From: Minisyncoccia bacterium
Lineage (GTDB): Bacteria > Patescibacteriota > Minisyncoccia > Phycocordibacterales > UBA2100
Direction: 5' to 3'
NCBI GenBank assembly: GCA_049297775.1
Contig: JBAQUX010000025.1
Location: 58,835 to 122,834, forward strand
Length of the DNA stretch: 64,000 nt
The notes beneath the pieces are model-generated. The model searched no databases. It worked only from the letters and a program-made list of their open reading frames with translations, and had not been told where the DNA came from. Every line of letters starts with the position of its first letter. The stretch's first letter is position 1. Below, one piece after another: positions 14,736-34,286 of the stretch. Both the position numbers and the translations under genes were made by a program.

Positions 14736-15956
14736 TTATTCTCTTGTGCGGACTGGTTTTGGCGCTGCATCTCCCTGTTCCTTAATATGTGGCGCCTCAA
14801 TATCATAATATACTCGCCCGATGTAGAACGGACTCTCGGGTGGCGGTCCCCAGGATGTGCCCGTTGATGCGTGTGTGCCCACATCTCGCGACAGCGACAT
14901 TTTAAGTGTATTTACCGCGTTTATAACAAGGTCTCCAAGATACCCATCAGGAATGCCAGCGCCGATGTCTGTACGAATTGCGTTACTCAACATATGTGTG
15001 TAAGCGCGTCGCAATTTTGGGTTCATTTGAACTTCCGGTAAGTATGAATGCGGTATATATGGAATTTTGTGCTTCTGCATAAATGCATGCAGATATTCGT
15101 TACTAATCGTCTCAAGTGCATTTTTTGCCATTGGTTCGTATTCAGTGAGGTACGGCATTCTGTCTACGGGGTACCCTATCAGATGTAAGTCTTTGATTAT
15201 CTGTGCCTCAAACGCTCTTCCATTACCATCAAAAAACGGGTGAATTATTTTTGAACCCATGATTGAAAAGAAGACAACAACCGTAAGATACTGGTCTATA
15301 TTTTTCGCACGACGCATGCCTTCGTCTCTCCACGCTGCAATGCGTGCCATAAGGTCGCCTACATTATCGAGCATACCTAAGTAGTATTCTGGCTCCTTAT
15401 TTGTATGTACAAATCGGTCAAAAATTTCTACTGTATGCGTTGCCGGCATTTCAGTTTTTGTACCGTCCGCGTCTATCCGTGCACCCTGACTTCTGAACGC
15501 TCCTTGCCTGCGCAGACCAATTTGAAATTGTGTAGACACTGCCTTTCCATTGCGAGCACTTGTTGCAAATTTAACCTCATGTTTTCCTCGCCAATACGGG
15601 ATGGGTGATGGTCCATCACTCGCCTCATCCATTTTCCGTTGCTTTCGCTCCAATACTTTCATCTTTGTCAAAATTGCATTCATCCCTGATTTTTGGTCTG
15701 CAATAGTAAGTACGTCTGGGTTATCCTGCGTTATCAATATAGCTGCTGCTTCCATGGCAAATCTGTCTGGCCACGGCTTCGTACTTCCGTGTGTCGTAAT
15801 ACGATGCATCAACTTCAAACCATCAAGCGTACCGAGGTGCTCAGGATTTTTTGGATCAAGTCGTTCAATGACTTTTGGAAGCAAAGCAAGAAATCGTCGG
15901 AGACCTTCCTCACGCGTGCCCGACTCAAGTGGATGCAAAAAATCAATACTAGTCAT
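14736..15956 (-). CDS. Fic/Doc-family protein (putative AMPylase or related phosphotransferase)
   Basis: Core motif HPFFDGNGRAFEA (HxFx[DE]GNGR; the final conserved Arg is replaced by Glu) within a ~400-aa protein. Confidence 0.75.
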   Translation of the reverse strand: MTSIDFLHPLESGTREEGLRRFLALLPKVIERLDPKNPEHLGTLDGLKLMHRITTHGSTKPWPDRFAMEAAAILITQDNPDVLTIADQKSGMNAILTKMKVLERKQRKMDEASDGPSPIPYWRGKHEVKFATSARNGKAVSTQFQIGLRRQGAFRSQGARIDADGTKTEMPATHTVEIFDRFVHTNKEPEYYLGMLDNVGDLMARIAAWRDEGMRRAKNIDQYLTVVVFFSIMGSKIIHPFFDGNGRAFEAQIIKDLHLIGYPVDRMPYLTEYEPMAKNALETISNEYLHAFMQKHKIPYIPHSYLPEVQMNPKLRRAYTHMLSNAIRTDIGAGIPDGYLGDLVINAVNTLKMSLSRDVGTHASTGTSWGPPPESPFYIGRVYYDIEAPHIKEQGDAAPKPVRTRE

Positions 15957-17528: not shown

Positions 17529-19715
17529 CTAGTGCGTAAGCACGTAATACTTTACCGCAGCGAAGTAATTAGTACCGTATCCTGCAGGCATATTCAACTT
17601 AACATCGAAGTTAGATTTAGACTTGAGTCCCGCATCGATACCTACAGTTATCCAGTGGAGTCGTGCAGCCTCTTCATTAGGGAAACTAAGGCTGTTCAAT
17701 GTCTGGTAGTCATACCAATTGAACACTTTCGGGTCGACCAAGTATTTATATGTGTCATAGAGCGCGTCTATGCTTGCTTGCACTTGTGCGAGTGTACCGA
17801 ATACGTAGTGAGACCTAAATTTGTAATCTCCCGCTGGTGCATTGCCTGGATATCGATATATGGACTGAATAGTAGTAAAACCATTTGAAGTCACAGATGC
17901 GAAATATGGAATGAGTCCAGTTAGGTCGTCAAACCTCTTGTCTGGTGAAAATATCGCCATCGCTTTCGTGCCATCAACTGAATGCGCAATAATCGGCTGA
18001 ACGGCAACGAATTTAGCATCCACAGTCGGATTTGTTGTGACGACGAGCGCTGTCAGCGCCTTAGTTCGCGGGTCATACACAGACAATTTTGGGAACTCTG
18101 TTCTCTTTACCGAGTTAAATGCTGGCAAGAAGCCGGAATCGTGGTATGTCTCGACAGTTCTCACGACCATGTCGGTAGTCAAAACCCCGGGCATACTCGT
18201 CGGCTTCGTAGATGTGCCAATATTTCCAATGGCGGCAGATTTGCCGAGCTTCACTGTGGACGTTGCTGTATTATTATTAAGAGTGAAATCTGGATTGTTC
18301 AGTCCATACGGTGCAACAAAGCACGTCGTCTTTCGCACTGGCGTACCCACATGTCCTCCAGTTGTCGGGTCATACGCATAGAAGTCCGTTGCAGCATTTG
18401 GGTTTACATAATACACAAGATCAGCGGTACTCACCATTCTATCGGCTGCAGATTTGTACCATATAGTTGGACTAGTAAGACCGCGGTTTGCACCATTTGC
18501 TATTACCACGTCAGCAACCGACCCTGTCTCGAGGGGGTTATTACAGTCATTGTAAAATGTCGGGTAGTCAGGCGTAGCCCCCACCATCGGAGTATTGAAG
18601 AAGAATGTCCCTTGTAGCGATCCGCCTCGTATATATTTAAGGTCAAGTGGCGGATCGTTCTGGACAAAGTTGTTTGAACCTCTCACAACCTGTGTAACTG
18701 CACCGCCATACGTTAATTTGTCAGTGGCTACAAACGTATCTCCATCTGACATATAATAACCATCATTTTCATATGTAGTTCCTAAATACGTCTTATTTGC
18801 AGAACCTGCTGGTATTGCTGGGTACACAGCTTCAGGAATATCCACAACAGGAAGCACAACAGTTACTGCTTGAGTCGCAGTAGCTGTACCGCCAGCTGTT
18901 TTAGTACAGGTCAATGTAAAGGTCTCGTTGTTCGTAATCATACTAGATACGACTGTCCCCGATATACCTGTTGCGAGTGTAGTCGATGCACCATTCTTAA
19001 CAGTACATGAACTCATTTGTGTTGAGCCCCATGTGAGGGTGGTTGTCTTACCCAATGCGACTGAAGTACTGGCTGCTGTAAGTGTCAGGGTTGGTACTGG
19101 AGAGGTGACGGTGATTGTAACGTTTTTTGTGATCGCTGATCCGGGTGCACCTGGTAACGGCTGACATACCAGTGAGAGCGTAGTCGTCGTGAGTGGCCCA
19201 TAGCTATATGCTGTTTGGTTAAGCGACGATAGGATCGTTGTTGCTCCATTTTTAAGTGTGCACGAGCTAGCATTAGTTGATGTCCATGTCAGTGATGTAT
19301 TAGTCCCAGACATGATTGTTGTAGGAGTTGCGGTAAATGTGGATGTTGGATTAGGTATTGCCGCATTAACAGTCACACCCACAGCTCCTGTGTCAGTCTC
19401 GTTACCATTATTCGGGTTATAACAATACACTGAATAATACGCATAGCCGGCTGCAGGCGTGTGAAATGAGTATCGATACGGGCCAGATGCATACACAGGA
19501 ATATCCAAGCCACTACCATAATACCGAGCGAGGCACACATTCTTAACCGCGTCTGGTTGCCAATTAATCTGTATCTGAGTTCCTTCCGTGACCGTAGTCC
19601 CCTGCACTGGGTACACTCCTATTGTTCCAGCTAATGAAATTCCAGGCAGCACAAGTAAAAAACTAATAAAGAAATAAATAATGCTGCGACGCGAGTAAAT
19701 ATAATTGGTAATCAT
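17529..19715 (-). CDS. Large secreted cell-surface protein with tandem Ig-like (~75-aa, Cys-containing) repeats
   Basis: N-terminal TM/signal (IIYFFISFLLVLPGISLAG). Two tandem repeats (...SLTWTSTNASSCTLKNGATT... and ...TLTWGSTQMSSCTVKNGASTT...). T/S/G-rich. Confidence 0.6.
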   Translation of the reverse strand: MITNYIYSRRSIIYFFISFLLVLPGISLAGTIGVYPVQGTTVTEGTQIQINWQPDAVKNVCLARYYGSGLDIPVYASGPYRYSFHTPAAGYAYYSVYCYNPNNGNETDTGAVGVTVNAAIPNPTSTFTATPTTIMSGTNTSLTWTSTNASSCTLKNGATTILSSLNQTAYSYGPLTTTTLSLVCQPLPGAPGSAITKNVTITVTSPVPTLTLTAASTSVALGKTTTLTWGSTQMSSCTVKNGASTTLATGISGTVVSSMITNNETFTLTCTKTAGGTATATQAVTVVLPVVDIPEAVYPAIPAGSANKTYLGTTYENDGYYMSDGDTFVATDKLTYGGAVTQVVRGSNNFVQNDPPLDLKYIRGGSLQGTFFFNTPMVGATPDYPTFYNDCNNPLETGSVADVVIANGANRGLTSPTIWYKSAADRMVSTADLVYYVNPNAATDFYAYDPTTGGHVGTPVRKTTCFVAPYGLNNPDFTLNNNTATSTVKLGKSAAIGNIGTSTKPTSMPGVLTTDMVVRTVETYHDSGFLPAFNSVKRTEFPKLSVYDPRTKALTALVVTTNPTVDAKFVAVQPIIAHSVDGTKAMAIFSPDKRFDDLTGLIPYFASVTSNGFTTIQSIYRYPGNAPAGDYKFRSHYVFGTLAQVQASIDALYDTYKYLVDPKVFNWYDYQTLNSLSFPNEEAARLHWITVGIDAGLKSKSNFDVKLNMPAGYGTNYFAAVKYYVLTH

Positions 19716-20058: not shown

Positions 20059-20541
20059 CTAATTCAGTAACGTCCCCAACTCTGCATCTACAATTATCAC
20101 ACCTTTTTTCTTCAGCCTAAGCACAACATCTTTCAAAGACGATCTTGAAAAATACATCTCCTGAAGGACAATTTCATTTCCATTCTTTGCTTGAATTACA
20201 AGACTGTCACTACCATACGATATTACATGTGTCGGACCGTATGTCACACTACTTACTTCACTGAACTGCATTCTTCGCATAATCATGAGGTACTTTCTTT
20301 CATATATACCTGTTTCATCTACCCCGACTCCATCTAACTTTAAAATTAGATGGAGTAGTCCAAAAATTAACATGCACAACGCAGAGATAACAGCGCGAAA
20401 TTCCATTGTGTTTGGCTCAAGAAATAACATTGGAATTATAATGAACCCAATAATTGGTAAATATTGTACTGTTTTGTAGTAGTTGTAATACATATTTTTA
20501 TTACTTATTTTTTGAAGGTGGTGGAACAACAATAACTCCAC
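20059..20541 (-). CDS. Putative immunity protein for orphan toxin cassette CT1 (membrane protein)
   Basis: Lies immediately 3' of cassette CT1, with a hydrophobic TM segment (LPIIGFIIIPMLFL...ISALCMLIFGLLHLIL). The probable start is the MYYNYYK Met (~20493), which avoids overlap. Confidence 0.5.
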   Translation of the reverse strand: MELLLFHHLQKISNKNMYYNYYKTVQYLPIIGFIIIPMLFLEPNTMEFRAVISALCMLIFGLLHLILKLDGVGVDETGIYERKYLMIMRRMQFSEVSSVTYGPTHVISYGSDSLVIQAKNGNEIVLQEMYFSRSSLKDVVLRLKKKGVIIVDAELGTLLN

Positions 20542-21533
20542 TCCATGTAGATACAGCGCCGTTCGGAAGCGTCCATAATTGTGTATATGGATTTTGAATT
20601 TGTTGTTGCTGATGAGTATTTCCAGGTGAAGAAAGTATATTTTGCGTTACGACCGAAGTTGACGATCCAAATATTTCTCCTGTCATTTTTTCAAGAACCT
20701 TCTTAGAGGCGGGGACCTTGCCAACGCCCCAACTAAAGAAACCACCAGTCACATAAGTTGCACTTCCTGATAATGCAGCTTTTTTTATGTCTGGGTATTC
20801 TCCATTTAAAGCGTCCTGGGCAGCAGAGCCGAAAGCAGATGACACAGCTGTTGCTACTTTATATGAACCAAGGAACGCCATTGTAGTTCCACCAATTACA
20901 TCTCCGGCAACATATGACATCGGAGATGAAAGATTGTCTGTAAATGCATTTTCTCTTCCATTTGCGCGATTGTTGATTACGTCCCCTGTGTATGTTGCGT
21001 AGCTGTTTACTCCAGCCCCTATGATAAAGAGGCATGGGATGAGCGCCGGACCTGCACATGTTCCATTTGGATCAGTATACTTAATTGGATTATTTTTTGC
21101 GTACGAATACAGATTTTGCTGCTGAGGATCAAGGAGCAACTGTTGCGAAATATTATTAATCCCCAGTGTCTGAGCCACCGGATCCTGACTCACAAACTGC
21201 CCCGTACTTGGATTGTAATACCGTGCGTTCAAATATGAAAGCTGTGCAGTATCATCGTAGAGTTCTCCTATGTACTTGCGCTGGGTATCAAATGAGGTGG
21301 CTTTGGTGTTTTGTCTGATGTCACCGTAGGGATAATAATCAATCGTTTGCACCTCATTCGGTATGAGTGGTCCTGGTGGGACTACCGCTACGGTACGGGT
21401 TTGGGTGACTGATTGTCCGCCACTGTCGGTTGCCGTGTAGGTACGCGTGTAGGTACCTTGTACTGCAGTGTTTACGGTTCCAGTCACTGTTGGAGTAACC
21501 GTGCCGTCTTCTGTGTCTGTGGCGGTTGCGCTG
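20501..21533 (-). CDS. Orphan RHS C-terminal toxin cassette CT1 (silent; no ATG; in-frame homology to the RHS core end)
   Basis: 21178..21533 is near-identical to 25611..25960 of the main RHS gene (...TVTGTVNTAVQGTYTRTYTATDSGG...YYPYGDIRQ...ARYYNPSTGQFVSQDPV). Then comes a divergent NLYSYAKNNPIKYTDPNGT demarcation and a Gly-rich hydrophobic C-terminal domain. The frame opens after a TAA with no ATG; the track's 'M' is a GTG. Confidence 0.7.
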
Positions 21534-21642: not shown

Positions 21643-22098
21643 TTATTTATTTTTACCGTCAAAAAAGGACTGCCATTTTAAAAGCCATGTATCCATATTA
21701 TCGTAACTATCCCGATAAAGCTTAAATTGCTTCACCGCTTCTGTATCTCTATTTAAAATTAAATTTGTGTAAAAACCATTTTTCGCAACCTCTGGGTACC
21801 CTAGAAACATCTTAACAAAGGGGTATATCTCTTCCAGGTTGTCGACAAGATGAATCTTCCAGTCTGGCGGTATCGAATCATCAACAACGTCGAAGCAATA
21901 TGCATACTCAAAGGTAAGTCTGTCCAACAAATATTGAATACCACTATCAAAAAAACCAACGGCAAGCACATTATATTCTTTGCCGAGCTCAACGCCAGCA
22001 AACATTTCTTCAGGGATGTGACTTCGCCCATTTCTGTCAAATTCAGAAGTATATTTCGCAATTTCGTCCCGATTCTTTCTAGCAAGTCTAACGCGCAT
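21643..22098 (-). CDS. Putative immunity protein for orphan cassette CT2
   Basis: 151-aa acidic cytoplasmic-type protein immediately 3' of CT2 (the usual toxin/immunity arrangement). Confidence 0.45.
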   Translation of the reverse strand: MRVRLARKNRDEIAKYTSEFDRNGRSHIPEEMFAGVELGKEYNVLAVGFFDSGIQYLLDRLTFEYAYCFDVVDDSIPPDWKIHLVDNLEEIYPFVKMFLGYPEVAKNGFYTNLILNRDTEAVKQFKLYRDSYDNMDTWLLKWQSFFDGKNK

Positions 22099-22107
22099 AA
22101 TTGTAAT

Positions 22108-23048
22108 TTAATTATTAATAAATTTAAAATCATCAACTTTAAATATCCCATTCACATTTAGGCCATTGAAATGAATCTCGACTTTTCCACCACCACTCCC
22201 TGAATATTCACGAGAATATGAATACTTATCCCACCCCTGCCACCTACCATCTTTCAACTCACTCATGATTTTTTTTCCTGACATCGGGTTTGACATGACC
22301 TCCTCCATAGAAAGCTTTTCTTCAAGACTATTGGCGACAGTTCTTCCGGTAGAACCCAAACCAGCAAACTCAGTCTTTGCCCCCATAGTTGCATTTTTAA
22401 TAGTCTTTCCATTTGTCGCAGAAAACCTTCCCGCTGAGCTCGACCCCTTGCCGGCCACCCCTGTAGCTAACCCAACCGCAGTATCACCAAGAATACCTCC
22501 CAAAATCGCATCTTGTTCAGCATCAGTACCGAAGAAGAAATTCTGTGTGGTTTGACTTCCTTGACCAGTTCCAATACTTTGCACACTATTAGATATCTGT
22601 CGTCCAACTGCTTGCATCGTACTGGATGCACCGTTGTTGTACACATTTGATATGAGAGAAAGAGTGCCTGCGCCTGTGCCCCAAATAGATCCTCCAGTAT
22701 TTTTTGCGGTACCTGAGATGGTAAACAACCCCGACGGATCCTTACTCCCTATCGGATTGTTCCCTGCATACGAGTAGCTGTTGAGACTTTGTGGATTCGC
22801 AAGGTTTTGTGATTGCCACCAAAACACCGGATCCTCACTCACAAACTGCCCCGTGCTTGGATTGTAATACCGTGCGTTCAAATATGAAAGCTGTGCAGTA
22901 TCATCGTAGTATTCTCCTATGTACTTACGCTGTATATCAAATGAGGTGGCTTTGGTGTTTTGTCTGATGTCGCCGTAGGGATAATAATCAATCGTTTGCA
23001 CCTCATTCGGTATAAGTGGTCCTGGTGGGACTACCGCTACGGTACGGG
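22108..23048 (-). CDS. Orphan RHS C-terminal toxin cassette CT2 (silent)
   Basis: 22826..23048 is homologous to the main gene's core end (VVPPGPLIPNEVQTIDYYPYGD...SEDPV). It then has SYSYAGNNPIGSKDPSGL (PxxxxDPxGL-type demarcation) and a unique Gly/Ser-rich C-terminus. No ATG (GTG at NEV). Confidence 0.7.
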
Positions 23049-23159
23049 TTTATCATAGTTAATTTGAAAGAACATTACGGACTTACATCTTCGACTTGAA
23101 GGCCGTAGGTATAATTTCTTATATACGAATCAGCAACGTTGTGACTATCGTATATTTTC

Positions 23160-23765
23160 CTACCACCATTTTATTTTGCTTGGCATTATCCCGTCCGAAT
23201 TAGAAACCTTAGCAAAGGTTAATTTCATTTTCTCAGAAATGAGGTCATCAATCATTCTATGTGTAGAAGATGCATATACACCGCATGGTTCATTTTTCAC
23301 TACAAGCAGTTTTCCATTTTCATCTACATATCTCGGAGCCTTGCCATTTTCATACGGCACCTCAATGAAACAGTGCTGGGAAAGCAAGTCGTCTTTTGTT
23401 AATTCTTTATGTTTGATTGTCTTGAAATATCCATCGAGCCAACCTCTTCGATTGCAAATCTCAGGGTCAATAAGTAAATTATTCTTATCAAGAACCGGAT
23501 CTGATTCAATTTCTTTTGTAATATGATTATATATGTACAAAAGAAAATCTTCACCCTTTGACATAGGACCTTGCCAATCCTCTCCCAAAATAACTCTTCC
23601 GTAAATATACCCGAGATACTTATTCTTAAATACAAAAATATCACCCACTTGCGGCTTCTTTCTGCTCACACCTAAAAAATCCATATTTATATCGTATTTT
23701 CTCATTTTATTTTCCTTTAGTTTTCTTTGCTTCCTGTATAATAACTTGCTGGCCCCAATTGACAA
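23160..23765 (-). CDS. Putative immunity protein for orphan cassette CT3
   Basis: Immediately 3' of CT3. The likely start is MRKYDINMDF (~23705). The C-terminus ...MPSKIKWW is shared with the remnant at 19905..20035. Confidence 0.45.
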   Translation of the reverse strand: MSIGASKLLYRKQRKLKENKMRKYDINMDFLGVSRKKPQVGDIFVFKNKYLGYIYGRVILGEDWQGPMSKGEDFLLYIYNHITKEIESDPVLDKNNLLIDPEICNRRGWLDGYFKTIKHKELTKDDLLSQHCFIEVPYENGKAPRYVDENGKLLVVKNEPCGVYASSTHRMIDDLISEKMKLTFAKVSNSDGIMPSKIKWW

Positions 23766-24587
23766 CTTCTTGATATATTGGGTTTTTGAATGAGATACTG
23801 CTTATTAAATTTTGATAGGCACCTCCTCCAGCAGTAATAAAAGCCTCTTCTACGGCGCGTGCCTGGTTGCGAGTATCGAAATCAGTAAATTTTTGCAATC
23901 TATCGAATCTTCCTCCATGCTGAAATTGTCTTTTAGCAACATCTTTCGCAATACCAACATACCTTTCGACACCAGCAATTAATCCTTTGTAGACAGATGC
24001 AGGTTCGCCTTTCATTAAGAATTCAGCAGCCTCCTTTGAAACTTGAATCCCTCTTACTGTGACAGTATCCAAACTTTTTTCGGCTACCTTTTTTTCCGTA
24101 CCTCCAGTCATAAAACCAGCTACAAATAATGCATTTTCAGCATTTTGCGTAGGAGACTGTTGATATATATTTGAACCAACGGGCTCTCCACTTTCAAAGT
24201 CTGGCATGAGTAACCCGCAGGCAACAGCCATTGCAACCGTTGAACACCGACCACTCGAATCTTTCCTCCCTATCGGATTCCCTCCAGCATAGCCATAACT
24301 ATTCTGTGCTTGTGGCTGTTGCACTGCTTGTGCACCGTCTTTAGTAAGTCCAAGTTCCCAAAACACCGGATCCTGACTCACAAACTGCCCCGTGCTTGGA
24401 TTGTAATACCGTGCATTCAAATATGAAAGCTGCGCAGTATCATCGTAGAGTTCTCCTATGTACTTACGCTGTATATCAAATGAGGTGGCATTGGTGTTTT
24501 GTCTGATGTCGCCGTAGGGATAATAATCAATCGTCTGCACCTCATTCGGTATGAGTGGTCCTGGTGGGACTACCGCTACGGTACGGG
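23707..24587 (-). CDS. Orphan RHS C-terminal toxin cassette CT3 (silent)
   Basis: 24369..24587 is homologous to the main core end. It has a QNSYGYAGGNPIGRKDSSGR demarcation and a unique ~200-aa C-terminal domain. An in-frame stop lies upstream with no ATG. Confidence 0.7.
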
Positions 24588-24665
24588 TTTGTCATAGTGA
24601 ATTTGAAAGAACATAACGGACTTACATCTTCGACTTGAAGGCCGGTAGGTACTTATGACTAAATT

Positions 24666-24932
24666 TTAAATAATTAAAATTTTCCAAAAGCCGTAGAGGG
24701 AAAGGCTGACAGATGCAACACCTATTACAAGCCATTGAATGCCTAATGAGTATCTTGTGTATGCGAGCCTCCATTTCGGCAAGCTTAAATATGATTCATT
24801 AACTGAATTTTCTTTTACGGATTCGATATTATTTATATAATATTTTTTTGACCATAGCGTACTGAAACCTATGTAACAAAAATATACACCAATTAAAAGG
24901 AGGGCGAGAGTCATGTATACGGTTGAAGACAT
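24666..24932 (-). CDS. Small 2-TM membrane protein, putative cognate immunity protein of the full-length RHS toxin
   Basis: 88 aa, two hydrophobic helices, starting 30 nt after the RHS stop on the same strand. Confidence 0.5.
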   Translation of the reverse strand: MSSTVYMTLALLLIGVYFCYIGFSTLWSKKYYINNIESVKENSVNESYLSLPKWRLAYTRYSLGIQWLVIGVASVSLSLYGFWKILII

Positions 24933-24962: not shown

Positions 24963-27900
24963 TTATTTCTTCTGCTTCTGCACGTTCAGCATACCGCTTG
25001 AATTACGCTGATAACTAGCTCCGTCCTGATTCACAGTTTCGGGCAAACTGCTGGTATTCTGCTTTGCATTATTTTGTGAGCTGTTTTGCTGCTTTTTATC
25101 ACGATCATCATTGTAAAATTTAGTTAATTGAGGGCCCATGTAGTGATCCATAACATCTAAGATTGTTGGACCGATTTCAAGGATAAGTTTCTCGCCAATT
25201 TCTTTTGTGGCACTCGTCGCACCTCTGAACATGAGATCAATTCCGAGAGTTATGCTTGTATCCTTTTTTTGCTGCTGAGTAAAAAAGTTTGGGTAATCGT
25301 AATATACTGTTTTTAGGTCGTAAAGATTTACTAATGTTTGGGCGCCTGAGTAGACAGCAATGATTGGCAAAATTGGTATTGCCTCGCCACTTCTATCAAA
25401 ATTTTTAATTGGATTACCAACACCATATGCATATGCATTAAGAGCTTGCGGATTAGTGAGGAACTTTTGAAGGGTTGCGACGTCATCGTCGTTATTATTT
25501 CCTGCTGTTAATTTTTTTTGTATTGTTGGTACGTTTTCAAATAGCCTACTACTGGATTGAATTCTGTTTAATGACTCTGTAAGAGTAGGTGTGCCTAGAG
25601 ACAACACTACCGGATCCTGACTCACAAACTGCCCCGTGCTTGGATTGTAATACCGTGCATTCAAATATGAAAGCTGCGCAGTATCATCGTAGAGTTCTCC
25701 TATGTACTTACGCTGTATATCAAATGAGGTGGCTTTGGTGTTTTGTCTGATGTCGCCGTAGGGATAATAATCAATCGTCTGCACCTCATTCGGTATGAGT
25801 GGTCCTGGTGGGACTACCGCTACGGTACGGGTTTGGGTGACTGATTGTCCACCACTGTCGGTTGCGGTGTAGGTACGCGTGTAGGTACCTTGTACCGCAG
25901 TGTTTACCGTTCCAGTTACTGTTGGAGTAACGGTGCCGTCTTCTGTGTCTGTGGCGGTAGCACCACTGTCTACATAGGTTGAACCTTGTGAGACGAGTGT
26001 TGGGTTGGTGCCACTCAGCGTGAGTACTGGTGGTGTGTTGGTTTGTGGTGCGAAGATACCCGGGATTTGGGATTGGGTCAGCCCAGTGCCGGCAAGAATC
26101 TTTACTTCATCGAGTGTTCCTTTGTGATATGACCATACACCTCCCGTGTTTGATTTGCCAAGGTAGGCAGTGGTGCCGGTGAATGAAAGGTTGGTTACTT
26201 GGCTTGGTGTTGAAGATGACTGGAGGACGTTGTCGAAGTAGAGCTCGATGGTGTTGCCACGTCTGAGACACACCATGTCGTGCCAATTATTGTCATACAC
26301 AGGAACGGTTGACGTATTGAGTGTTGTGCCACCTACGTGACAATTACCCTGCATATTTGAGTTTACATACATGTAGATATTGCTGTAGTTGTTTACATCG
26401 GTGCCCTCAAAGAAGAGCGGGCTACTTGCGTAGTTGAGTGGCCACACTGTTTTGAACCGTACTGCAACAGTAAAGTCTGAAGTTGCAGGACTATATGGCG
26501 TGAAGGCAAGATTGTCTGAGGTGCCATTCAAGTACGCTGCGGTATCTGCAGTACCTTCCTTTCCTGCTACTGATGTGTACCCATTTGAAGTAAGTGGATA
26601 CGTACTCGTGTTTATACTATTCTCTAATTTACTTGTACTTCCTTGTGCTCCCGTGTACTTCCACTGTACGAGCGGTGTAGGAATAGTGTCGGCTGGGTTT
26701 GGAGCACGAACGATTACAGTGCGTATTTTGGTGTCGGTACTTCCACCACTATCTGTAACGCTATATGTCTTAACGTACGTACCTGTCGTGGCGGTGTTCA
26801 CCGCACCTGTTGTTACGATACTTTGTGTCAGTGTGCCATCTTCTGTGTCTATTGCACTTGCTCCTTGCTCCGTGTATGTCGCATTCTGTGCAACGATTAC
26901 GGTAGACTCACCGATTACAGATACTTTCGGTGGCCTATTGTATTGCACAATGTCTGACGTGATTGCGGATGATGAACCAAGAGTATCTGTATGCAGATAG
27001 TACGGTGTTACCGTAGTCCCAACTGTTTCTATTGTGGCTACTACTGTATCCCCTGCAAATATGTGCTTTGTCTTTTTACCTGTCGAATCTTTGTTATAGA
27101 ATTTGTTTGGATATTTTGTAGTCAGTGTGCCACTTGTGTGACTCACGCGTTGCTTGCTTGTGTCATAACCGTATGTTGTTGTTACTCCACCTTTTGTAAC
27201 ACTCGCGAGCGTATTGTTGTAATTCCACACATACGTACGAACGCCATCACTCACGACATTTCCGTTATTGTCATACGTGTAGGAACTTGCACCTATGGTA
27301 GTTACTGCATGTGGGTTTGCATATCCCGTACCTGCATAGCTATATGCACCGGTATCAGACTTATTGGTGATACTACCCAGTGCATCGTACGCAAATGTAT
27401 GTGCATAGTTTGTTCCCACGAGGGCGTTTGATGCTGTCGCACTCGTTAAGCGGTATAGGTCGTCATAACCCAACGCAAGGTTCTTCTTTGTATTGGTATC
27501 AGAAGCATCACCTATTGCCGTAATGTTACCTACGGCATCATATGCGTATGAGAGATACTGGTATGCCTTTGACGTGTAGGTTGTGAATGTTCCCGTAGTG
27601 CTCCAGTCAGTCTCAGAATTTCCGGTTGTCCAGAATTTAATGCGCCAATAGTATTTGGTGCCATTAAACGTGAGCGGTGCACCTGCGTACACTATGTCGC
27701 TGGTACGCGCCCCAAACGATGTCGCAGAAAGCGATGTACCTGCGGCGCCCGAATCCCACAGTATGCCAGTCGAGAAATCTGCACTCGTTGCAACTTGCAT
27801 ACGATATTTATGTGCGACTGTTCCTGATGCACCGAGATTAAATATACCTGAGAAAACTGGCGCACCACATTTTAGTTCTACTGGATTTAACGCTCCATCT

Positions 27901-30900
27901 TGTGCGGTTAGGCACCCTGAGTACAGATAACTTTGCACAACCTGTGGCGTGGTTACTACAAAATAATCTGAGCCGTCACTCCATGGACCTTGTGTACCTC
28001 CTGTATCCCAGAATCGTATTCTCCACAGATATTTAGTGCCGTTTAACTGCAACGCAGTGCCTCCGTACGTAATGTTTGGCGTCCTGTCACCTTGGTTTAA
28101 GAGAGTTGGCAGTGCGGATTTCTGTGAATCCCACAATGGTGTTGCCCAGTTTCCACCTTCAGGGATAACTTGCACTGCGTAATGCGCACCGCTGTCTACC
28201 AGGTCGGGGTCATTAAATGTTGCCGTAAATTTTGGAGTACCGGTGGTTACTGTTGTTGGATTACTTAAGCTTTCAACTTTTAAATCTGTTGCCGTTGGCG
28301 GAATTGTTGGAAGTGAGTATGTTACTTCTAGGTATGGGTCAAAATCAGTGCCCGTATACTCTGACATTCTGAATGCATACGAATGAAATCCGGAAGTTGG
28401 AGGTACGTTGTCTTTATCGTATCCCGAGCGTAAACCAATTTTCGTCCAACCGGTAAGATTAATTGAACCGATACCAGTCGCATTAAGTGCAAAAGTTTTC
28501 CAATCTGGCGATGTAAATGTTCCATTTGCAGAATTTACACGAGCACTTAACTCAGTTGTGCCAGACTGATCAAAGTCATTCAGTACGAGCGCAGTTGGTG
28601 ACGCCTGTGTTGTAGGCACAACTACAAGATACGCATTTGGGTCCCATGCGTAGTTTACATATGTCGAGTACAGCTTTAAATTTGCACCTGTTATATTCGC
28701 TGTATCAGGAAGCGCATCTGTATTAAAGGGAACAAACAAGCGCTCGATAGTATCTGAATATTGTGCATTTGAAGCAGTTGGACCGCAACTTGACGTGCAC
28801 GGATATGCGCCGACACTTGCATCGTGTGAGTCACTCCATGAATTAGTTGGAGAATAGTTTCCTACTGCCCCATCAGCAATGTCAGAAGAGTAACTCAAGA
28901 TTGCGTCTGTAGTTACCGGGTACACTGCCTTTACTAACCATTCTTTTGGAATATGTTTTGTTAAAAGATATCCTCCGGGAACTTTTGTATACTCAACTGT
29001 TATTTGAAGCTTCTTATTTTCTGAATCCCAAATTTTTGGTGCGAATATATATACAGAATCTTCACCTTTCAGGAGCCGTGCATTTGCAGTAGTACTCATT
29101 GTGTCTTTTATAGATGTGTCACCAACCAAAAGCTCTACATCATCCTGCACGCGCAACATAAACGATACATCGTATGTTGCATCTGCATCATTTAGATTTT
29201 TTAATGCATCTGCATTTTGAATTACTACGTCTTTTGCGACGAAATTATTGTCTGCGCGAAGCACTATATCTATCCCGTCACCATACGCATTTTTCTCTCC
29301 AATTTCTCGCTCTTCCTTTTCAGTACGACTTCCCATCTTCCCGTTTTTTTCTCGTATTTGAGCACTCTTTGTTGCATTTGAATTTCTAGACTTCTCGTAT
29401 TGAGACTCAATTGCAACCGCAAGCTTTCCTACGGTAAAGGTTGCGAGTTCTACACTTATGTCTGTCTTAATATCGAGAGCATATCTTGCATCTCGAACCT
29501 TATACCCTTCTGCATCTTTGCGAATGCGTGTATCTATTGGCTGTAATTTCCCTTCAGCATCTTTGTAATGCACTGGTGCAGAAAATAATCGTGTTACTCG
29601 TGTTTCGTTTCCTTGTTCATCTCTTCCAACACGAATCGTGTAGCTATTCTCAGTTCTTGCTTTTTCAATCTCGGTGTCGTCCTTTGTATGAACTAGTGAA
29701 AGTAATTTTGGAAAATCTTCCGTATTCGAAGGCTTTTCTACAACCACTTCAGGCTTTTTTTCTACAACATCCGTAACTATTTCTTTCGGAGTGTCGGAAG
29801 TGTTTTGTTCATCCGGAATCGTAGGCGTTTTGATAGAGTCAGACACTTCCTCTGGTTCTACTGCAATCTCAGGAAGTGGACTTTGTGGTGCCGTAATAGC
29901 CTTAATTTCTTCTTGTATCTGCACTTCTTGCACCTCTGGAGAAGCAACCACTTCCTCAGCAAGCGGAACAACGAGAGACTGTTCTGCTGGCACGATTGGT
30001 ATTTCAGCAACAGGTGTAACATCCTCAGCTGGCGGATCAATTGTAGAAATATTTTTCAAGCGATACATCTCATTTGAGTCGTAGGTGTGGTATGTCCACG
30101 TATTGTTGGCGAGTTGCTTCAAGGTAAACTGACCGTGCGGACCATAATCATAATTTGAGACCACATCAACCCATGTACCACCCGATTCTTTTCGTTGGAT
30201 TTTCTCAATCCTTCCCGTCTGGTTGTAGGTATATTTTACTTGTGCACTGTCTGGCGTAGTAATCGTAGATATATCTCCTGTTCGAGTGTAGTCAAAGTTT
30301 GTCGTGAATGTTTCTCCTCCGATAACTCTTTGCTCTTCTGCGACGTCACCACGAACCGTGTATGTATATGTAGACGTTGTTGTACCGCGCGTAGCTGTAC
30401 TTAACCTGCCTTTGCCATAGGTTCCTATATCATACGTATAGCTTGCTTCTATTCCTGAAACATTTGTTGCGTCTTCTGAAGTTAGTCTATCGAGTGCATC
30501 GTACGCATAGTTTACGACTGTTCCTGACGGTTGAGTTTCTTGAGTTTTATTGCCCTGTGCATCGTACACAAAATTCCAATTGCCAAAAGTACTGTCTGCA
30601 GGTGCATGCAAGTCTTCTGCACTTGTTCTGCGGTTTGCTTTATCATACGTGAAGGCACGAACATTTCCTCCGGCATCTTGTATAGTACTCAGATTATTTT
30701 TTGTATCGTATGTGTATGTGGTGACATTTGGTGTTGAGCCAACAAATTCTGTCACTTTGTATACACTGCCACGCGCATCTGTTTCATACATTTTTTGTTT
30801 ACCTTTGGCATCAACTATCGTCTTTTTCCAGTCCGTGTAGCTTGTTGCTGTCGTTCCAAGTGCATTTACTGAGCTCACGACTCTATTTAACGCATCGTAT

Positions 30901-33900
30901 ACAAATGAAGTTGCGAGTGCGGAGTTTGTACTTGGGCTCGTTTTACTCCCGCCAATACTGGCGTATGGCAATGATTGTGAGGTCACGGTACCGTCTCTCC
31001 CGTATGTTGCGTCAGCTACAGAATACTTTCCTCCTTCGTTACTCACGCGCTTTTGAATTACCCTGCCAAGTCCATCGGCATACGTGTACGAATCCTGTGA
31101 AAGGGATCCCGTAATGTAGGTCCGTTCATACACACTGTTTGCGTTACGCGTATCCGTATAGGTGAGTGTTTTTGAAGTTATCAGTGATGCCGGTGCACTA
31201 TTGTCACTTGCTCGCACTGATACTACACGCCCCAAGGCATCGTAGGTGGTTTCAACGGAATATGTATTTGCATCAGTTACCAGTTTTGGCTTACCTATGA
31301 TTTGATTGTACTGATACGTAGTTGCGTGCGTCAGCGGATTTGTACTGGTTGCCGGATACAAGTTTTGCGCATCGTACGTAAGCGTTGTTGTGTAGTTTCT
31401 TGGGTTGATAATCGAACTTACCAGTCCATACGAGTTGAACGTGCGCTGTGTTGAAGCATACGTGGCTCCTGAGAGGAGTTGTTCGGTTTTCGTTTCGTTT
31501 CCGATGGTCACTGTGCCTAGTGGCTGAGCATCATAGTAACGACGGGCCTCTGATTGAATGACTCCTAACTGATCTTTAAGAAGCTGGCGTGATACTTTGT
31601 TCAAAATTTTGCCAGCGGTATCTGTTGCATACGTGTACTCTGTTACGCGCTTATCTGTACCAGTATCAACATACGTGCCATCTGGCGAGGCGTTAACTTC
31701 TCCCCACTCTGACTCAGAAAAAATGTTACCGTTTGTGGTGTTATATGCACGAGTTTTTACTGTGTCTTTGTGCGATGCATCACCCTCATATATGAGCGTA
31801 GCAACTTGCGTGTTTTGTACAAAAAACTGATTCCCTGCTACTGCAGCAATCCAGCGAAGTACTTCCAAAGAATACAGAGACCCATTGCTTGCATACCGTG
31901 CGATTCTGTACGGCTTACCAATTTTTGAAGGGTGGTCTAACACTTCACCATTTGTAGTATCTGTAGTGTTTCCTTGGTGGTAATACGTTTTTGTTTTGTT
32001 ACCTGCAGAATCTGTAACGGTGATTATGTTAAACCCAGCGAATTGCTTATCATTATATGCATTAAAGTACTGCGATATACCTTCATAAAAATATGTTTTT
32101 GTATCAAGGTATCCAGAGCCATCGCCAATAGTAATAGTATCTACCGTAGTTACAGGATATGGTGAGCCAGTATTAACTAGATTTCCACTTCCATCTTTAT
32201 AGGCAAGCGAACTTTTGTACGTATACGACACACTCCCACCTTGCGGAAGTGTTACTGAGGTAAGCAAGTCTGCTTTTTTACCTGTATTCAAATATACTTT
32301 ATTTGTCAAAACACCACCTGGAAATATTGCACCGACCAAATCTGGCAGTGAGTCGCCGTTTATATCTAAGATTCTCCAACCCCCATCTTTTTGCCCAGTT
32401 ACTCCGTTCCAAGATGAAAACACCACATCTGAGGGAAGATTGTACGTACCCGTATTGAAAGTTGTACCGGTATTAGTGAATAATGATTGAACGTTTGTTC
32501 CACCAGCATTAGTTGCTGATTCAATAATATCTGGCAAACCATCTGCGTTTATATCAGCAATTCGTGAGCCGACTCTTTCTGACCCGTCTATACTAAAGGG
32601 ATAAGCTCCAGGTACGGTAATTGCAGATGTCAGAAAACCTTTAGCTGAGTTAAGTTTGAGTGCTTTTACCGTCACATTGTTTACGACAGACCACTCTATT
32701 GAGTCCAGTAGGCCGTCACCGTTAAAATCTCCAAACCGTCCATCATTGGTGTACGGCGCGCCATCTGTCCAGGTGACTGAATCTTTCCAGCCGAGAGTTA
32801 CTCCATTACCAAAATACGTAGACATAATATCTGCGCGACCGTCTCCATTCCAATCTGCAAATGATACATTGTTAGGGCCAGAATATAGACTACTAAATCC
32901 AAAACCGTCTGGAATGCTATACGCAGAATTCCATACATAATCTGTAGGACCTTTCACAAAAACTTTTTTATACTGTTTATTCTCAGACGGCGTCTGATTG
33001 TAATCATCATCATCGTGGGCCTCGACAAGGTCGTCCATTCCATCACCATTTACATCTCCGACGCGCAGGCCGAAGTCGTTGTGATTCAGCGTGTCCTCAG
33101 CTAAAAAGCAAGCATCCGTAGGAACAAGTGCTGTGGTAATTGTATTCCATGCAGTACCAGTATTAAGCGCAGTTTGCTTGTTGTAGCATTGAGCTGGAGT
33201 TGGCCCGCTTGCTTTAATTATATCTGGCAACCCATCCCCATTTACCTCAGCAAAGCGAACACCATTATCAGGTGTAAATGCTGTATCAATGAGAGGAATT
33301 GAAATTGACCAATTTGGTGCCACTTGCCATCCTACTGTCGGCTGTTGGTAGGCAAGTTGCGTTGCAGGTAGTGTGACAACATTACCTTGTTCATCTCGTC
33401 CACTCTCAACCACAGTACTCAAAACGGAACGAACACCATTTACACCGGTGCCATAGCCGAGGTCATATTTTCTAACCCAGGTGCCACTTTTCTTTGCGAT
33501 TACTTGTTTTATACGATAGTTTGACGTAACTGCAAAAGCGGTTTTGTATGATGGTACTGTGTCTACACGTGCTTCACGAATAAAATTTACTTCAAAAATA
33601 CCATCTGTGCTTCCTGAACCTGTATAGAAAATAGAATCTGGATATATTTGTCCAGCATTTTTAAAATATGTATATCGCGCAAAGTTATTATTTGTATCTC
33701 TCACTTCGTCAAGCATCCACTGATACACATTTGCAGTATTCGCGATGTCATCTTGTCGCGATGCGGCAGTAGAACCTAATTTGAATACGGTCCCGTCCTT
33801 TCCTGTAATAGTCCACGCTGTGCCTGTATACGCATATGTATTGTACGCACCAGAGTCGTATTTAGCTCTATAGATAGCAGGTGAGCCTGCAGTAATCAGA

Positions 33901-34286
33901 ACCAGCTCTCCATCAAGAGAAGAAGTAAAGGTGTTTTGTGTATAGAGATTATTTACGCCCTCTTTATTTAGTCTTGAGATTGCAGGGATACCCACTGACC
34001 ATCCGTATCCGTATAAGCCAGTATTATCACTTGTATTACTATTGTATGAAAGTGAGAGCGACGGTTCGATACCATTTCTTCCTGGAGGAGTTACGAACGG
34101 AATGTCATATGTCGCAGACCCAGTATTTCCTTCTGGGCGAATTTGAATTGTTTTAGATTTTGTTTCAAGAAGACTTACTGGAACGTTGTATCCGTTATCC
34201 TCTGCTCGAGCTACGTTTGGGAATGCGCACGTCTGTAAAAATATGGTGAGAACAACAATTACAGCGACAGCTCTTTTTGTGCGCAT
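24963..34286 (-). CDS. Giant (3107 aa) secreted RHS/YD-repeat polymorphic toxin with a TcB/SpvB-like N-terminus
   Basis: Signal peptide. SpvB/TcdB-N-like region (IEPSLSLSYNSNTSDNTGLYGYGWSVGIPAISRL). Multiple FG-GAP/VCBS-like repeats (DVNGDGMDDLV, DWNGDGRADI, DFNGDGLLDS, DINADGLPDII, DINGDSLPDLV). First YD-repeat block (YTYD..GN, YDALGR...). Pro/Glu-rich linker. Two fn3-like modules (KYLWRIRFWDTGG / KYYWRIKFWTTGN). Second YD block ending YYLHTDTLGSS. Two Ig-like modules (TYxxTDSGG). A LamG/ConA-like module (DNNWHDMVCLRRGNTIELYFDNVLQ...LDEVKIL). A terminal RHS core end (YYPYGDIRQ...RYYNPSTGQFVSQDPV + AYAYGVGNPIKNFDRSGE). A unique ~150-aa C-terminal domain. Confidence 0.9.
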   Translation of the reverse strand: MRTKRAVAVIVVLTIFLQTCAFPNVARAEDNGYNVPVSLLETKSKTIQIRPEGNTGSATYDIPFVTPPGRNGIEPSLSLSYNSNTSDNTGLYGYGWSVGIPAISRLNKEGVNNLYTQNTFTSSLDGELVLITAGSPAIYRAKYDSGAYNTYAYTGTAWTITGKDGTVFKLGSTAASRQDDIANTANVYQWMLDEVRDTNNNFARYTYFKNAGQIYPDSIFYTGSGSTDGIFEVNFIREARVDTVPSYKTAFAVTSNYRIKQVIAKKSGTWVRKYDLGYGTGVNGVRSVLSTVVESGRDEQGNVVTLPATQLAYQQPTVGWQVAPNWSISIPLIDTAFTPDNGVRFAEVNGDGLPDIIKASGPTPAQCYNKQTALNTGTAWNTITTALVPTDACFLAEDTLNHNDFGLRVGDVNGDGMDDLVEAHDDDDYNQTPSENKQYKKVFVKGPTDYVWNSAYSIPDGFGFSSLYSGPNNVSFADWNGDGRADIMSTYFGNGVTLGWKDSVTWTDGAPYTNDGRFGDFNGDGLLDSIEWSVVNNVTVKALKLNSAKGFLTSAITVPGAYPFSIDGSERVGSRIADINADGLPDIIESATNAGGTNVQSLFTNTGTTFNTGTYNLPSDVVFSSWNGVTGQKDGGWRILDINGDSLPDLVGAIFPGGVLTNKVYLNTGKKADLLTSVTLPQGGSVSYTYKSSLAYKDGSGNLVNTGSPYPVTTVDTITIGDGSGYLDTKTYFYEGISQYFNAYNDKQFAGFNIITVTDSAGNKTKTYYHQGNTTDTTNGEVLDHPSKIGKPYRIARYASNGSLYSLEVLRWIAAVAGNQFFVQNTQVATLIYEGDASHKDTVKTRAYNTTNGNIFSESEWGEVNASPDGTYVDTGTDKRVTEYTYATDTAGKILNKVSRQLLKDQLGVIQSEARRYYDAQPLGTVTIGNETKTEQLLSGATYASTQRTFNSYGLVSSIINPRNYTTTLTYDAQNLYPATSTNPLTHATTYQYNQIIGKPKLVTDANTYSVETTYDALGRVVSVRASDNSAPASLITSKTLTYTDTRNANSVYERTYITGSLSQDSYTYADGLGRVIQKRVSNEGGKYSVADATYGRDGTVTSQSLPYASIGGSKTSPSTNSALATSFVYDALNRVVSSVNALGTTATSYTDWKKTIVDAKGKQKMYETDARGSVYKVTEFVGSTPNVTTYTYDTKNNLSTIQDAGGNVRAFTYDKANRRTSAEDLHAPADSTFGNWNFVYDAQGNKTQETQPSGTVVNYAYDALDRLTSEDATNVSGIEASYTYDIGTYGKGRLSTATRGTTTSTYTYTVRGDVAEEQRVIGGETFTTNFDYTRTGDISTITTPDSAQVKYTYNQTGRIEKIQRKESGGTWVDVVSNYDYGPHGQFTLKQLANNTWTYHTYDSNEMYRLKNISTIDPPAEDVTPVAEIPIVPAEQSLVVPLAEEVVASPEVQEVQIQEEIKAITAPQSPLPEIAVEPEEVSDSIKTPTIPDEQNTSDTPKEIVTDVVEKKPEVVVEKPSNTEDFPKLLSLVHTKDDTEIEKARTENSYTIRVGRDEQGNETRVTRLFSAPVHYKDAEGKLQPIDTRIRKDAEGYKVRDARYALDIKTDISVELATFTVGKLAVAIESQYEKSRNSNATKSAQIREKNGKMGSRTEKEEREIGEKNAYGDGIDIVLRADNNFVAKDVVIQNADALKNLNDADATYDVSFMLRVQDDVELLVGDTSIKDTMSTTANARLLKGEDSVYIFAPKIWDSENKKLQITVEYTKVPGGYLLTKHIPKEWLVKAVYPVTTDAILSYSSDIADGAVGNYSPTNSWSDSHDASVGAYPCTSSCGPTASNAQYSDTIERLFVPFNTDALPDTANITGANLKLYSTYVNYAWDPNAYLVVVPTTQASPTALVLNDFDQSGTTELSARVNSANGTFTSPDWKTFALNATGIGSINLTGWTKIGLRSGYDKDNVPPTSGFHSYAFRMSEYTGTDFDPYLEVTYSLPTIPPTATDLKVESLSNPTTVTTGTPKFTATFNDPDLVDSGAHYAVQVIPEGGNWATPLWDSQKSALPTLLNQGDRTPNITYGGTALQLNGTKYLWRIRFWDTGGTQGPWSDGSDYFVVTTPQVVQSYLYSGCLTAQDGALNPVELKCGAPVFSGIFNLGASGTVAHKYRMQVATSADFSTGILWDSGAAGTSLSATSFGARTSDIVYAGAPLTFNGTKYYWRIKFWTTGNSETDWSTTGTFTTYTSKAYQYLSYAYDAVGNITAIGDASDTNTKKNLALGYDDLYRLTSATASNALVGTNYAHTFAYDALGSITNKSDTGAYSYAGTGYANPHAVTTIGASSYTYDNNGNVVSDGVRTYVWNYNNTLASVTKGGVTTTYGYDTSKQRVSHTSGTLTTKYPNKFYNKDSTGKKTKHIFAGDTVVATIETVGTTVTPYYLHTDTLGSSSAITSDIVQYNRPPKVSVIGESTVIVAQNATYTEQGASAIDTEDGTLTQSIVTTGAVNTATTGTYVKTYSVTDSGGSTDTKIRTVIVRAPNPADTIPTPLVQWKYTGAQGSTSKLENSINTSTYPLTSNGYTSVAGKEGTADTAAYLNGTSDNLAFTPYSPATSDFTVAVRFKTVWPLNYASSPLFFEGTDVNNYSNIYMYVNSNMQGNCHVGGTTLNTSTVPVYDNNWHDMVCLRRGNTIELYFDNVLQSSSTPSQVTNLSFTGTTAYLGKSNTGGVWSYHKGTLDEVKILAGTGLTQSQIPGIFAPQTNTPPVLTLSGTNPTLVSQGSTYVDSGATATDTEDGTVTPTVTGTVNTAVQGTYTRTYTATDSGGQSVTQTRTVAVVPPGPLIPNEVQTIDYYPYGDIRQNTKATSFDIQRKYIGELYDDTAQLSYLNARYYNPSTGQFVSQDPVVLSLGTPTLTESLNRIQSSSRLFENVPTIQKKLTAGNNNDDDVATLQKFLTNPQALNAYAYGVGNPIKNFDRSGEAIPILPIIAVYSGAQTLVNLYDLKTVYYDYPNFFTQQQKKDTSITLGIDLMFRGATSATKEIGEKLILEIGPTILDVMDHYMGPQLTKFYNDDRDKKQQNSSQNNAKQNTSSLPETVNQDGASYQRNSSGMLNVQKQKK

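Follow-up and report, generated by a model that had tools for sequence, protein, structure and literature searches.

ABC (toxin complex, Tc) toxins, the mosquito salivary protein SGS1 and the secreted WapA toxins are the described systems closest to the giant RHS protein reported here, which is encoded in a 64-kb stretch of DNA (henceforth referred to as the window) from contig JBAQUX010000025.1 of a Minisyncoccia bacterium. The TcB-TcC proteins (YenB/YenC2, TcdB2-TccC3) combine an SpvB domain, a propeller, a TcdB mid-N domain and an RHS shell with an aspartyl-protease core and a variable tip. A published survey placed Tc loci in Proteobacteria (96%) and Firmicutes (3%) and found that 97.9% of the TcC variable regions are 201-400 amino acids long. 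SGS1 (PDB 8FJP; Liu et al. [quoted passage not shown] In WapA-CT1 of S. suis (3158 amino acids), a signal peptide and a DNRLRE domain accompany the Rhs barrel and its polymorphic tips, together with immunity genes and orphan cassettes; contact-dependent killing of other bacteria by this system was shown experimentally, and its N-terminal DNRLRE and LysM region was proposed to bind the cell wall (PMC12704120). The Rhs effectors of type VI secretion systems (RhsA, Rhs1, Tse5, Tse15) and teneurins likewise have a YD shell, with a core plug at the C-terminus and motifs for autoproteolysis. In the open-access literature we found no dedicated study of the RHS/YD proteins of Patescibacteria, also known as the Candidate Phyla Radiation (CPR).

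The giant gene occupies positions 24963..34286 of the window on the minus strand, as do all of its features given below. It is a single open reading frame (ORF) of 3107 codons plus a stop, unbroken over its whole length, and two homologues (P0001 and P0002) match it extensively. The 3107-residue protein begins with a typical Sec-type signal peptide at residues 1-28 (34203..34286), recognized by reading the sequence (MRTKR, a hydrophobic core and ARA|ED) and by a Kyte-Doolittle segment at residues 4-27 with a maximum of 2.07. The sequence-only reading of this gene had listed SpvB, FG-GAP, YD, fn3-like, Ig-like and LamG modules followed by a core end, and all of them were confirmed in that order when the whole protein and nine overlapping pieces of it were scanned with Pfam and NCBIfam.

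The SpvB / TcB N-terminal domain covers residues 53 to ~320 (33327..34130; PF03534, E 9e-20), and the TcB-like character claimed for this N-terminus is borne out by its PDB sequence matches to YenB, TcdB1 and SpvB (E ~7e-7). It is followed by an FG-GAP beta-propeller with TcdB_toxin_midN at residues ~330-690 (32217..33299; PF13517 in seven stretches, E 1.5e-15; PF01839, E 4e-11; PF12256, E 1e-9) and by the first part of the RHS/YD shell at residues ~691-1420 (30027..32216; PF05593 in seven stretches, E 2e-21). Insertion A comes next (residues 1421-2242, 822 amino acids; 27561..30026). It holds a low-complexity linker rich in Pro, Glu and Val (residues ~1416-1530, of which ~1421-1530 belong to the insertion; 29697..30026), an all-beta domain that we call U1 (residues ~1531-1790; 28917..29696), a DNRLRE/CBM96-like beta-sandwich, U2 (residues ~1791-1995; 28302..28916), and two Ig_Rha78A_N domains (residues ~1996-2242; 27561..28301; PF25788 in two stretches over ~1996-2237, E 1.6e-21), which are the two fn3-like modules recognized earlier. 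The linker had been put at ~250 amino acids, but a composition scan (P+E fraction 0.22-0.32) gives only ~110. The second part of the shell, residues 2243-2443 (26958..27560; PF05593 in three stretches, E 3e-7), terminates in YYLHTDTLGSS at residue 2429. Insertion B (residues 2444-2835, 392 amino acids; 25782..26957) consists of two Bact_surface_Ig-like copies at residues ~2450-2527 and 2755-2824 (PF16403, E 2e-30 for both together) on either side of a Laminin_G_3 domain at residues 2587-2740 (PF13385, E 3e-12). The chain closes with the Rhs-associated core end, residues 2836-2968 (25383..25781; TIGR03696, E 3e-15, with 56.5 bits at residues 2840-2895 for a cut-off of 32.5), and a C-terminal variable tip, residues 2969-3107 (24963..25382). 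In the whole-protein scan the YD repeats reached E 1.5e-20 for PF05593 and E 1.6e-16 for TIGR01643. The SpvB/propeller unit and the core end each occur once in the gene.

Judged against its relatives, the giant protein is one TcB/TcC-like RHS shell with two hairpin-loop insertions. A homologue search with the giant protein returned 681 proteins at E<=1e-20, and those that are named come mostly from Patescibacteria lineages. We compared the query with the 120 best of these using BLAST, and the first part of the shell was collinear with all 120. Around 30 homologues are base forms of 1830-2050 amino acids, in which the segments equivalent to residues 51-1420, 2243-2443 and 2836-2978 are contiguous, separated by gaps of 3 and 7 residues. 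In the base form P0029, for example, query residues 51-1420 align with 123-1475, 2243-2443 with 1479-1681 and 2836-2978 with 1689-1803; P0048, P0021 and P0052 show the same pattern. At the site of insertion A, the query has MYRLKNISTID, the 822 amino acids of the insertion and then YLSYAYDAVGNIT, against LYRLSNKTTLNAGATKLQDTTYTYDAVGNIT in P0029. At the site of insertion B, P0029 reads YYVHTDTLLGSNVISDSTGAKNQLLDYYPFG, and the query has YYLHTDTLGSSSAITSD, ~390 amino acids and NEVQTIDYYPYG. The second part of the shell (200 amino acids) corresponds exactly to the base-form segment at that position.

From 15 uninterrupted base-form shell segments that span all the insertion sites we built a profile and compared it with the PDB. 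The profile matched the Rhs-family structure 8h8a (E 5e-34) over profile positions 40-496 in one continuous stretch, and was also continuous on TcdB2-TccC3 (positions 120-491), on TccC2 and on a teneurin-like protein (positions 38-498). Because the giant protein is collinear both with the base forms and with solved single-shell proteins, the two YD blocks, which had been taken as separate and possibly as two shells, make up one shell.

The two insertions fall at sites that are used repeatedly across the family. We determined site occupancy in 115 of the compared homologues from the shell anchors that flank each site. Site A, between query residues 1420 and 2243, holds 2-4 residues when empty and is occupied in 71 of 115 homologues, with inserts of 159-1558 amino acids. 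Site B, between residues 2443 and 2836, holds 7 residues when empty and is occupied in 14, with inserts of 164-658 amino acids. A third site, C, lies within the second part of the shell (residues 2345-2368, nucleotides ~27183-27254); it holds 21-28 residues when empty, as it is in the query, and is occupied in 12 of the 115 by inserts of 175-450 amino acids. All three hot-spots fall in the final ~260 residues of the shell. The architecture had been called unusual, and this needs to be divided: insertion at these sites is common, above all at site A, whereas the full combination is rare. The cassettes at site C, seen in P0038, P0047, P0061, P0090, P0102, P0109, P0016, P0046 and others, contain U2-like domains and other modules of LamG/DUF2341 type. 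U2-like domains were also seen near residues 170-700 of P0014, P0077, P0064 and P0042, outside the three C-terminal hot-spots; these perhaps belong to the propeller region or its surroundings, or reflect partial gene models.

The cassettes carry folds of binding type. The region that follows the linker, residues 1531-1995 (~465 amino acids), contains two folded beta domains that had been missed. An AlphaFold2 (AF2) model of this region, based on a 29-sequence alignment, consists of two all-beta domains with a mean pLDDT of 88 and a pTM of 0.85. U1, for which the pLDDT is mostly >90, had no Pfam, NCBIfam or PDB sequence match; Foldseek matched it weakly to YidC P1 and to accessory domains of polysaccharide lyases that have the beta-supersandwich fold, and the domain is kept in ~13 homologues. 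U2 matched the DNRLRE family NF033679 below the cut-off (E 8e-5, 22.7 bits against a cut-off of 34). Its Foldseek matches with a probability of 1.00 were to a chondroitin-sulfate-binding CBM (8wab, TMt 0.65), an alginate-binding CBM (7vbo, TMt 0.52) and the pro-BMP9 prodomain. The CBM96 family was founded on 7VBO, which is related to the DNRLRE domain. On the model, U2 is predicted to be a carbohydrate-binding-module fold of CBM96/DNRLRE-like type. PDB sequence searches with U1 and U2 together, or with the whole protein, gave almost no matches; those with the N-terminus and with the shell profile were the informative ones.

Across the family, cassettes combine in several ways: U2 alone, U2 with Ig_Rha78A_N, the linker with U1, U2 and Ig_Rha78A_N, pairs of Ig-like domains, and other LamG-containing inserts at site C. 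Insertion A and this form of insertion B occur together only in the query and in P0002, a protein of 3229 amino acids that shares 41% identity over 96% of the query. The locus of P0002 is syntenic, with genes for TyrRS, DnaJ and a 160-amino acid protein upstream and an acyltransferase and a histidine kinase nearby. Identity between the two proteins is ~35% in U1/U2 and ~36% in insertion B. Because P0002 shares all of it at 41% identity, the full design has been conserved through considerable divergence. A homologue search with insertion B found only generic PF16403 Ig domains, and its LamG part had no close relative except in P0002. The LamG inserts of P0061, P0090 and P0102 were considered as homologues of insertion B and rejected: they are located at site C and their sequences are not homologous. 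Their apparent coverage of 1.0 was an artefact of long gapped high-scoring segment pairs (HSPs) and was discounted.

The core end reads YYPYGD..RYYNPSTGQFVSQDPV, a spacer of 72 amino acids and then NAYAYGVGNPIKNFDRSGE, and it aligns to the solved cores of Rhs, Tse15, Tse5, SGS1 and TccC3. The first Asp motif, QDPV, is conserved. The second, 72 amino acids downstream, reads FDRSGE, so that, relative to the usual pair DPxG ... DPxGL, the Asp is retained and the Pro and Leu are replaced. Beyond NAYAYGVGNPIKNFDRSGE the tip runs through a hydrophobic helix-like segment, a conserved DYPxxF(T/S)xQEK motif, a Gly/Ala-rich segment, LDxLDxY and a tail rich in Ser, Asn and Gln. The two motifs can also be given as DYPxxFTQQ(E/Q)K and LDxxDxY. 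This layout is common to seven giant homologues in the hit set, as found by local BLAST and phmmer. The tip had no Pfam match, and a word-indexed homologue search with it was also empty, but a profile of the tip searched against 1.84 billion cluster representatives recovered 106 members at E<=1e-10. Most of these are 150-450 amino acids long, that is, orphan cassettes or fragments, and no named toxin domain was detected in the members that we scanned. The hydrophobic helical character of the tip, together with a membrane-embedded putative immunity protein encoded next to it, weakly suggests that its activity is membrane-directed.

This putative cognate immunity protein (88 amino acids; 24666..24932, minus strand, as are all the genes of the array that it opens) is encoded directly downstream of the tip; it has two transmembrane (TM) segments by hydropathy and no family match. 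Beyond it lie three orphan cassettes that repeat the core end (VQTIDYYPYGDIRQNT...), each with another tip and each followed by a small ORF. Orphan 1 (23707..24664; TIGR03696, E 2e-15) is paired with an immunity gene of the Imm26 family (23160..23765; PF15428, E 5e-11). Orphan 2 (22108..23125; TIGR03696, E 9e-19), which retains the canonical DPSGL, is paired with an ORF of 151 amino acids that is a putative immunity gene by position and has no family match (21643..22098). Orphan 3 (20501..21529) encodes the end of the second Ig-like domain (the C-terminal half of PF16403), the core end (TIGR03696) and a Gly-rich tip, and its putative immunity gene (160 amino acids; 20059..20541) was assigned by position and by two TM segments in the hydropathy profile. 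The second Asp motif takes the forms KDSSGR, KDPSGL and TDPNGT in the orphans. A DNA repeat of ~300 nucleotides is present in four copies and extends back as far as the codons of the second Ig-like domain; with orphan 3 as the reference, the copy in the giant gene is 96% identical, that of orphan 1 80% and that of orphan 2 79%.

By its gene content the locus is a polymorphic-toxin array headed by the giant gene, in which the immunity roles are putative. Since an immunity gene and an array of orphan cassettes accompany it, the giant protein would be a polymorphic, probably antibacterial, toxin. The tips of orphans 2 and 3 (22108-23001 and 20501-21487) are Gly/Ser-rich and have no family match, and that of orphan 3 is moderately hydrophobic and lies beside a two-TM ORF, which suggests that orphan 3 is a second membrane-directed toxin type in the array.

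In relatives, the junction between the second Ig-like domain (Ig2) and the core leads into other tips. P0129 is 92% identical to the query over Ig2 and carries Tox-REase-7 instead of the query tip. The NCBI protein P0001 is a partial copy of the giant gene from a Minisyncoccia metagenome-assembled genome (Minisyncoccota, that is, Patescibacteria/CPR), where it is located at a contig end. It is 100% identical to the query over the aligned 94% and 99.7% identical over residues 1-2906, and its last residues (…SQDPVAQTLGINNISQQLLLDP) match the tip of orphan 3 and not the tip found in the window (25569-25908 compared with 21125-21529). The difference comes about either because tips are really switched in the population or because the two assemblies resolved a repeat that is 96-99% identical in different ways. 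Separately, P0128 (443 amino acids) and P0129 (413 amino acids) each have their own signal peptide, linker, Ig-like domain, core end and tip, and no shell (compare 25383-26080); they might act as mini-toxins exported in their own right, or be a stock of cassettes for later recombination.

We consider it likely that the giant protein is a Sec-secreted, single-chain RHS cocoon that heads a polymorphic-toxin locus, with outward binding cassettes, a caged tip and delivery that is independent of TcA. In this model, the cassettes would stand out from the cocoon on its outer side and serve as adhesion or glycan-binding modules, tethering it to a target cell (the host or a competitor of an epibiont-type bacterium) or to the producer envelope. 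With the core end cut by aspartyl autoproteolysis, the tip of ~140 amino acids, helical and partly hydrophobic, would stay caged in the shell. Once released it would act on the target membrane, and the two-TM protein would be the immunity factor. The orphan cassettes would permit tip switching through recombination across the Ig2/core repeat. Delivery would require neither TcA nor a type VI secretion system and would resemble that of the Sec-exported Rhs toxins of WapA type.

This model has precedents. Among solved proteins, SGS1 is by analogy the closest structural precedent for shell decoration: it shares with the query a single chain of >3000 amino acids, domains inserted in the YD sequence, a plug formed by the Rhs core and, at the C-terminus, a cargo that is helical and hydrophobic. 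We infer that the inserts of the query are likewise placed outside the cocoon, because at 392 and 822 amino acids they are too large for its interior and because the SGS1 structure offers a precedent. SGS1 differs in being eukaryotic (acquired by transfer), in lacking immunity genes and orphan tips, in its other inserted folds and in its extra N-terminal propeller. It aligns weakly with the query core, and its alignment to the shell profile spans only positions 370-492. That the SGS1 wedge domain occupies the equivalent of site A was considered and set aside, because the alignment is limited to these profile positions.

The closest functional analogue, again by analogy, is the group of Sec-exported WapA toxins of B. 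subtilis and S. suis, which have a signal peptide, ~3100 amino acids, an Rhs barrel, tips with immunity genes and orphans, and a DNRLRE-type domain. Their accessory DNRLRE and LysM domains are N-terminal to the barrel and not spliced into it, and they have no SpvB/FG-GAP head. DUF6531 was detected in the giant protein only at E 0.023, under the cut-off. The shell profile matches the effectors of type VI secretion systems and teneurins strongly. Unlike these effectors, the query is without a PAAR, VgrG-binding or clade domain, and among the scanned neighbours of the giant gene we found no genes for such a system. The tip of one of these effectors, Tse5, is pore-forming. In teneurins the decorations are mostly appended to the shell and not spliced at hairpins of the query type.

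Several points weigh against the proposed model. The outward projection of the inserts is based on their size and on SGS1. Tip-releasing autoproteolysis could be impaired, because the second motif reads FDRSGE and not DPxGL and because the Asp-Asp spacer is long. The peak hydropathy of the tip (1.47) is below the usual TM threshold and its AF2 model (three helices, pLDDT 47) is unreliable, so that the assignment of a membrane activity is weak. Which tip is now attached may itself depend on how the nearly identical repeat was resolved in the assembly. The TcA negatives cover the 64-kb window and the loci of P0002 and P0029, so that a TcA-like gene could still lie elsewhere in the genome, and the model gives no role to the conserved propeller, which in TcB docks TcA.

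The alternative that fares best concerns what the cassettes bind. The inserts may anchor the cocoon to the envelope of its own producer through cell-wall or S-layer glycans, as was proposed for the DNRLRE and LysM region of S. suis WapA, which has been assigned to cell-wall binding. The giant protein has a Sec signal peptide, and our scans found no LPXTG, LysM or SLH in it and no sortase partner among the neighbouring genes. The modules differ greatly among related bacteria, however, which fits variable targets better. This is not decisive, and we regard self-anchoring as a minority option to be kept in mind. Target binding and self binding could also coexist, for example with insertion A in one role and insertion B in the other.

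It is less probable still that the protein is an adhesin or scaffold, that is, a cocoon that displays binding modules for the attachment of an epibiont to its host, with a tip that is vestigial or non-toxic. Such a role would accord with the ~1200 amino acids of binding-type modules carried in the shell and with a module content that varies as host adaptation would predict; SGS1 and teneurins show that shells need not be toxins, and the second protease motif is atypical. A vestigial tip is difficult to reconcile with four alternative tips that each lie beside a small ORF, one of them Imm26, with relatives that join named nuclease toxin tips to this Ig2-core junction, and with a tip family that is widespread as orphan cassettes. 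Taken together, the tips with their small ORFs, the nuclease tips of relatives and the recurrence of orphans point to active diversification of toxin and immunity genes.

We also weighed, and find improbable, a true ABC toxin, in which a TcA encoded elsewhere would dock the propeller and translocate the tip into eukaryotic or other cells, leaving the inserts as accessories. The B/C-like head is clearly homologous to TcB/TcC by sequence: SpvB, FG-GAP and TcdB_toxin_midN are conserved in all 120 homologues, in addition to the matches of the N-terminus to YenB and TcdB1 and of the shell profile to TcdB2-TccC3. Its B and C parts form a single chain, an arrangement shared with certain BC fusions, both natural and engineered. 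Yet the query differs from TcB-TcC in its Sec signal peptide, in its immunity genes and orphan cassettes, which are typical of polymorphic toxins that target bacteria, and in a tip about half the size of the usual hypervariable region (~140 amino acids, the tips at this locus being ~140-205 amino acids and accompanied by immunity-type ORFs, against 201-400 amino acids in most TcC). Its base-form shell is shorter, with 1214 amino acids of accessory domains spliced into shell hairpins, and its phylum does not appear in the Tc survey. The longest of the other ORFs of the window encodes 777 amino acids, no TcA-type Pfam domain was found in 20 neighbouring genes, and no TcA-like gene lies near P0002 or P0029. 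The small size of Patescibacteria genomes also counts against this alternative. Membership in the ABC toxins thus fails on a defining feature, because no TcA is nearby, the tip is short and immunity-type genes are present. When the sequence-only reading described a decorated, ABC-toxin-like shell, the decoration is supported by its topology and fold types and has a solved precedent in SGS1, its binding function being putative; the ABC label holds for the B/C part only, in a locus with an immunity/orphan array and no TcA in the window or near the two homologues.

Finally, the gene might be an artefact in which two RHS genes were fused by mis-assembly or by a masked frameshift, giving two shells. 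The >800 amino acids between the YD blocks (low-complexity linker included) and the tendency of repeats to fragment assemblies (P0001 is partial) might bring such a fusion to mind, and it had been named earlier as a result that would overturn the architecture. For the gene body it is next to impossible: no stop or frameshift occurs at 29.7-30.1 kb; P0002 and P0003, which come from independent samples, align collinearly over both junctions in single BLAST HSPs, the 29.7-30.1 kb junction included; the second part of the shell is the base-form segment; and SpvB/propeller and core end are single.

The twenty genes that we scanned around the toxin locus are housekeeping or unrelated. An ORF of 406 amino acids near the array (14736-15956, minus strand) contains the Fic active-site motif HPFFDGNGR and has no Pfam match at E<=0.01; it may encode a divergent protein of Fic/AMPylase type. 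Just downstream of the orphan array, two genes (16013-17380 and 17529-19715, minus strand) encode predicted secreted proteins of 455 and 728 amino acids that have N-terminal hydrophobic signal-like segments and no Pfam or NCBIfam match, the larger one with repeated Thr/Ser-rich segments of Ig-like appearance. At 48985-49083 (plus strand), Rfam reports a tRNA (47.6 bits, 99 nucleotides) and ARAGORN finds no tRNA in the window; this tRNA may be atypical or contain an intron. The start of the giant gene lacks a Shine-Dalgarno sequence, as had been noticed, but this is not specific to it: such a motif is missing 5' of ~32 of the 36 gene starts examined in the window, including those of the housekeeping genes dnaK, dnaJ and tyrS. 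Because so many genes share it, the absence is a genome-wide trait, and translation initiation in the source genome seems to be largely independent of Shine-Dalgarno sequences.

The module types found here were known already and the family is abundant in databases. What stands out from these sequences is the modularity of the hot-spots and the TcB-like head without a TcA nearby. Interchangeable cassettes of binding type are carried at the hot-spots across >100 relatives, and the wall-splicing principle of SGS1, seen in one eukaryotic structure, is extended to a large bacterial family. The loop positions tolerate inserts of ~160-1550 amino acids, which would be useful for the engineering of Tc/Rhs capsules.

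Patescibacteria (CPR) account for a large share of bacterial diversity and live attached to other cells with tiny genomes. Here, a lineage with a tiny genome devotes ~9.3 kb to one secreted protein, and the combination of a single cocoon, hot-spots and a toxin/immunity array makes a testable model of how partner cells are recognized and attacked. More tentatively, and with the odds somewhat against it, the three hairpin hot-spots near the closed pole may form a plug-in platform for retargeting. In it, ultra-small Patescibacteria would swap cassettes of glycan- or protein-binding domains at sites A, C and B, and tips at the Ig2/core junction, and so tune which host or competitor cells are bound and killed, independently of TcA. 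If this is true, these genes would provide a template for engineering retargetable protein-delivery capsules and, at ~1% of the genome, would rank among the main factors that set host range in CPR bacteria living as epibionts.

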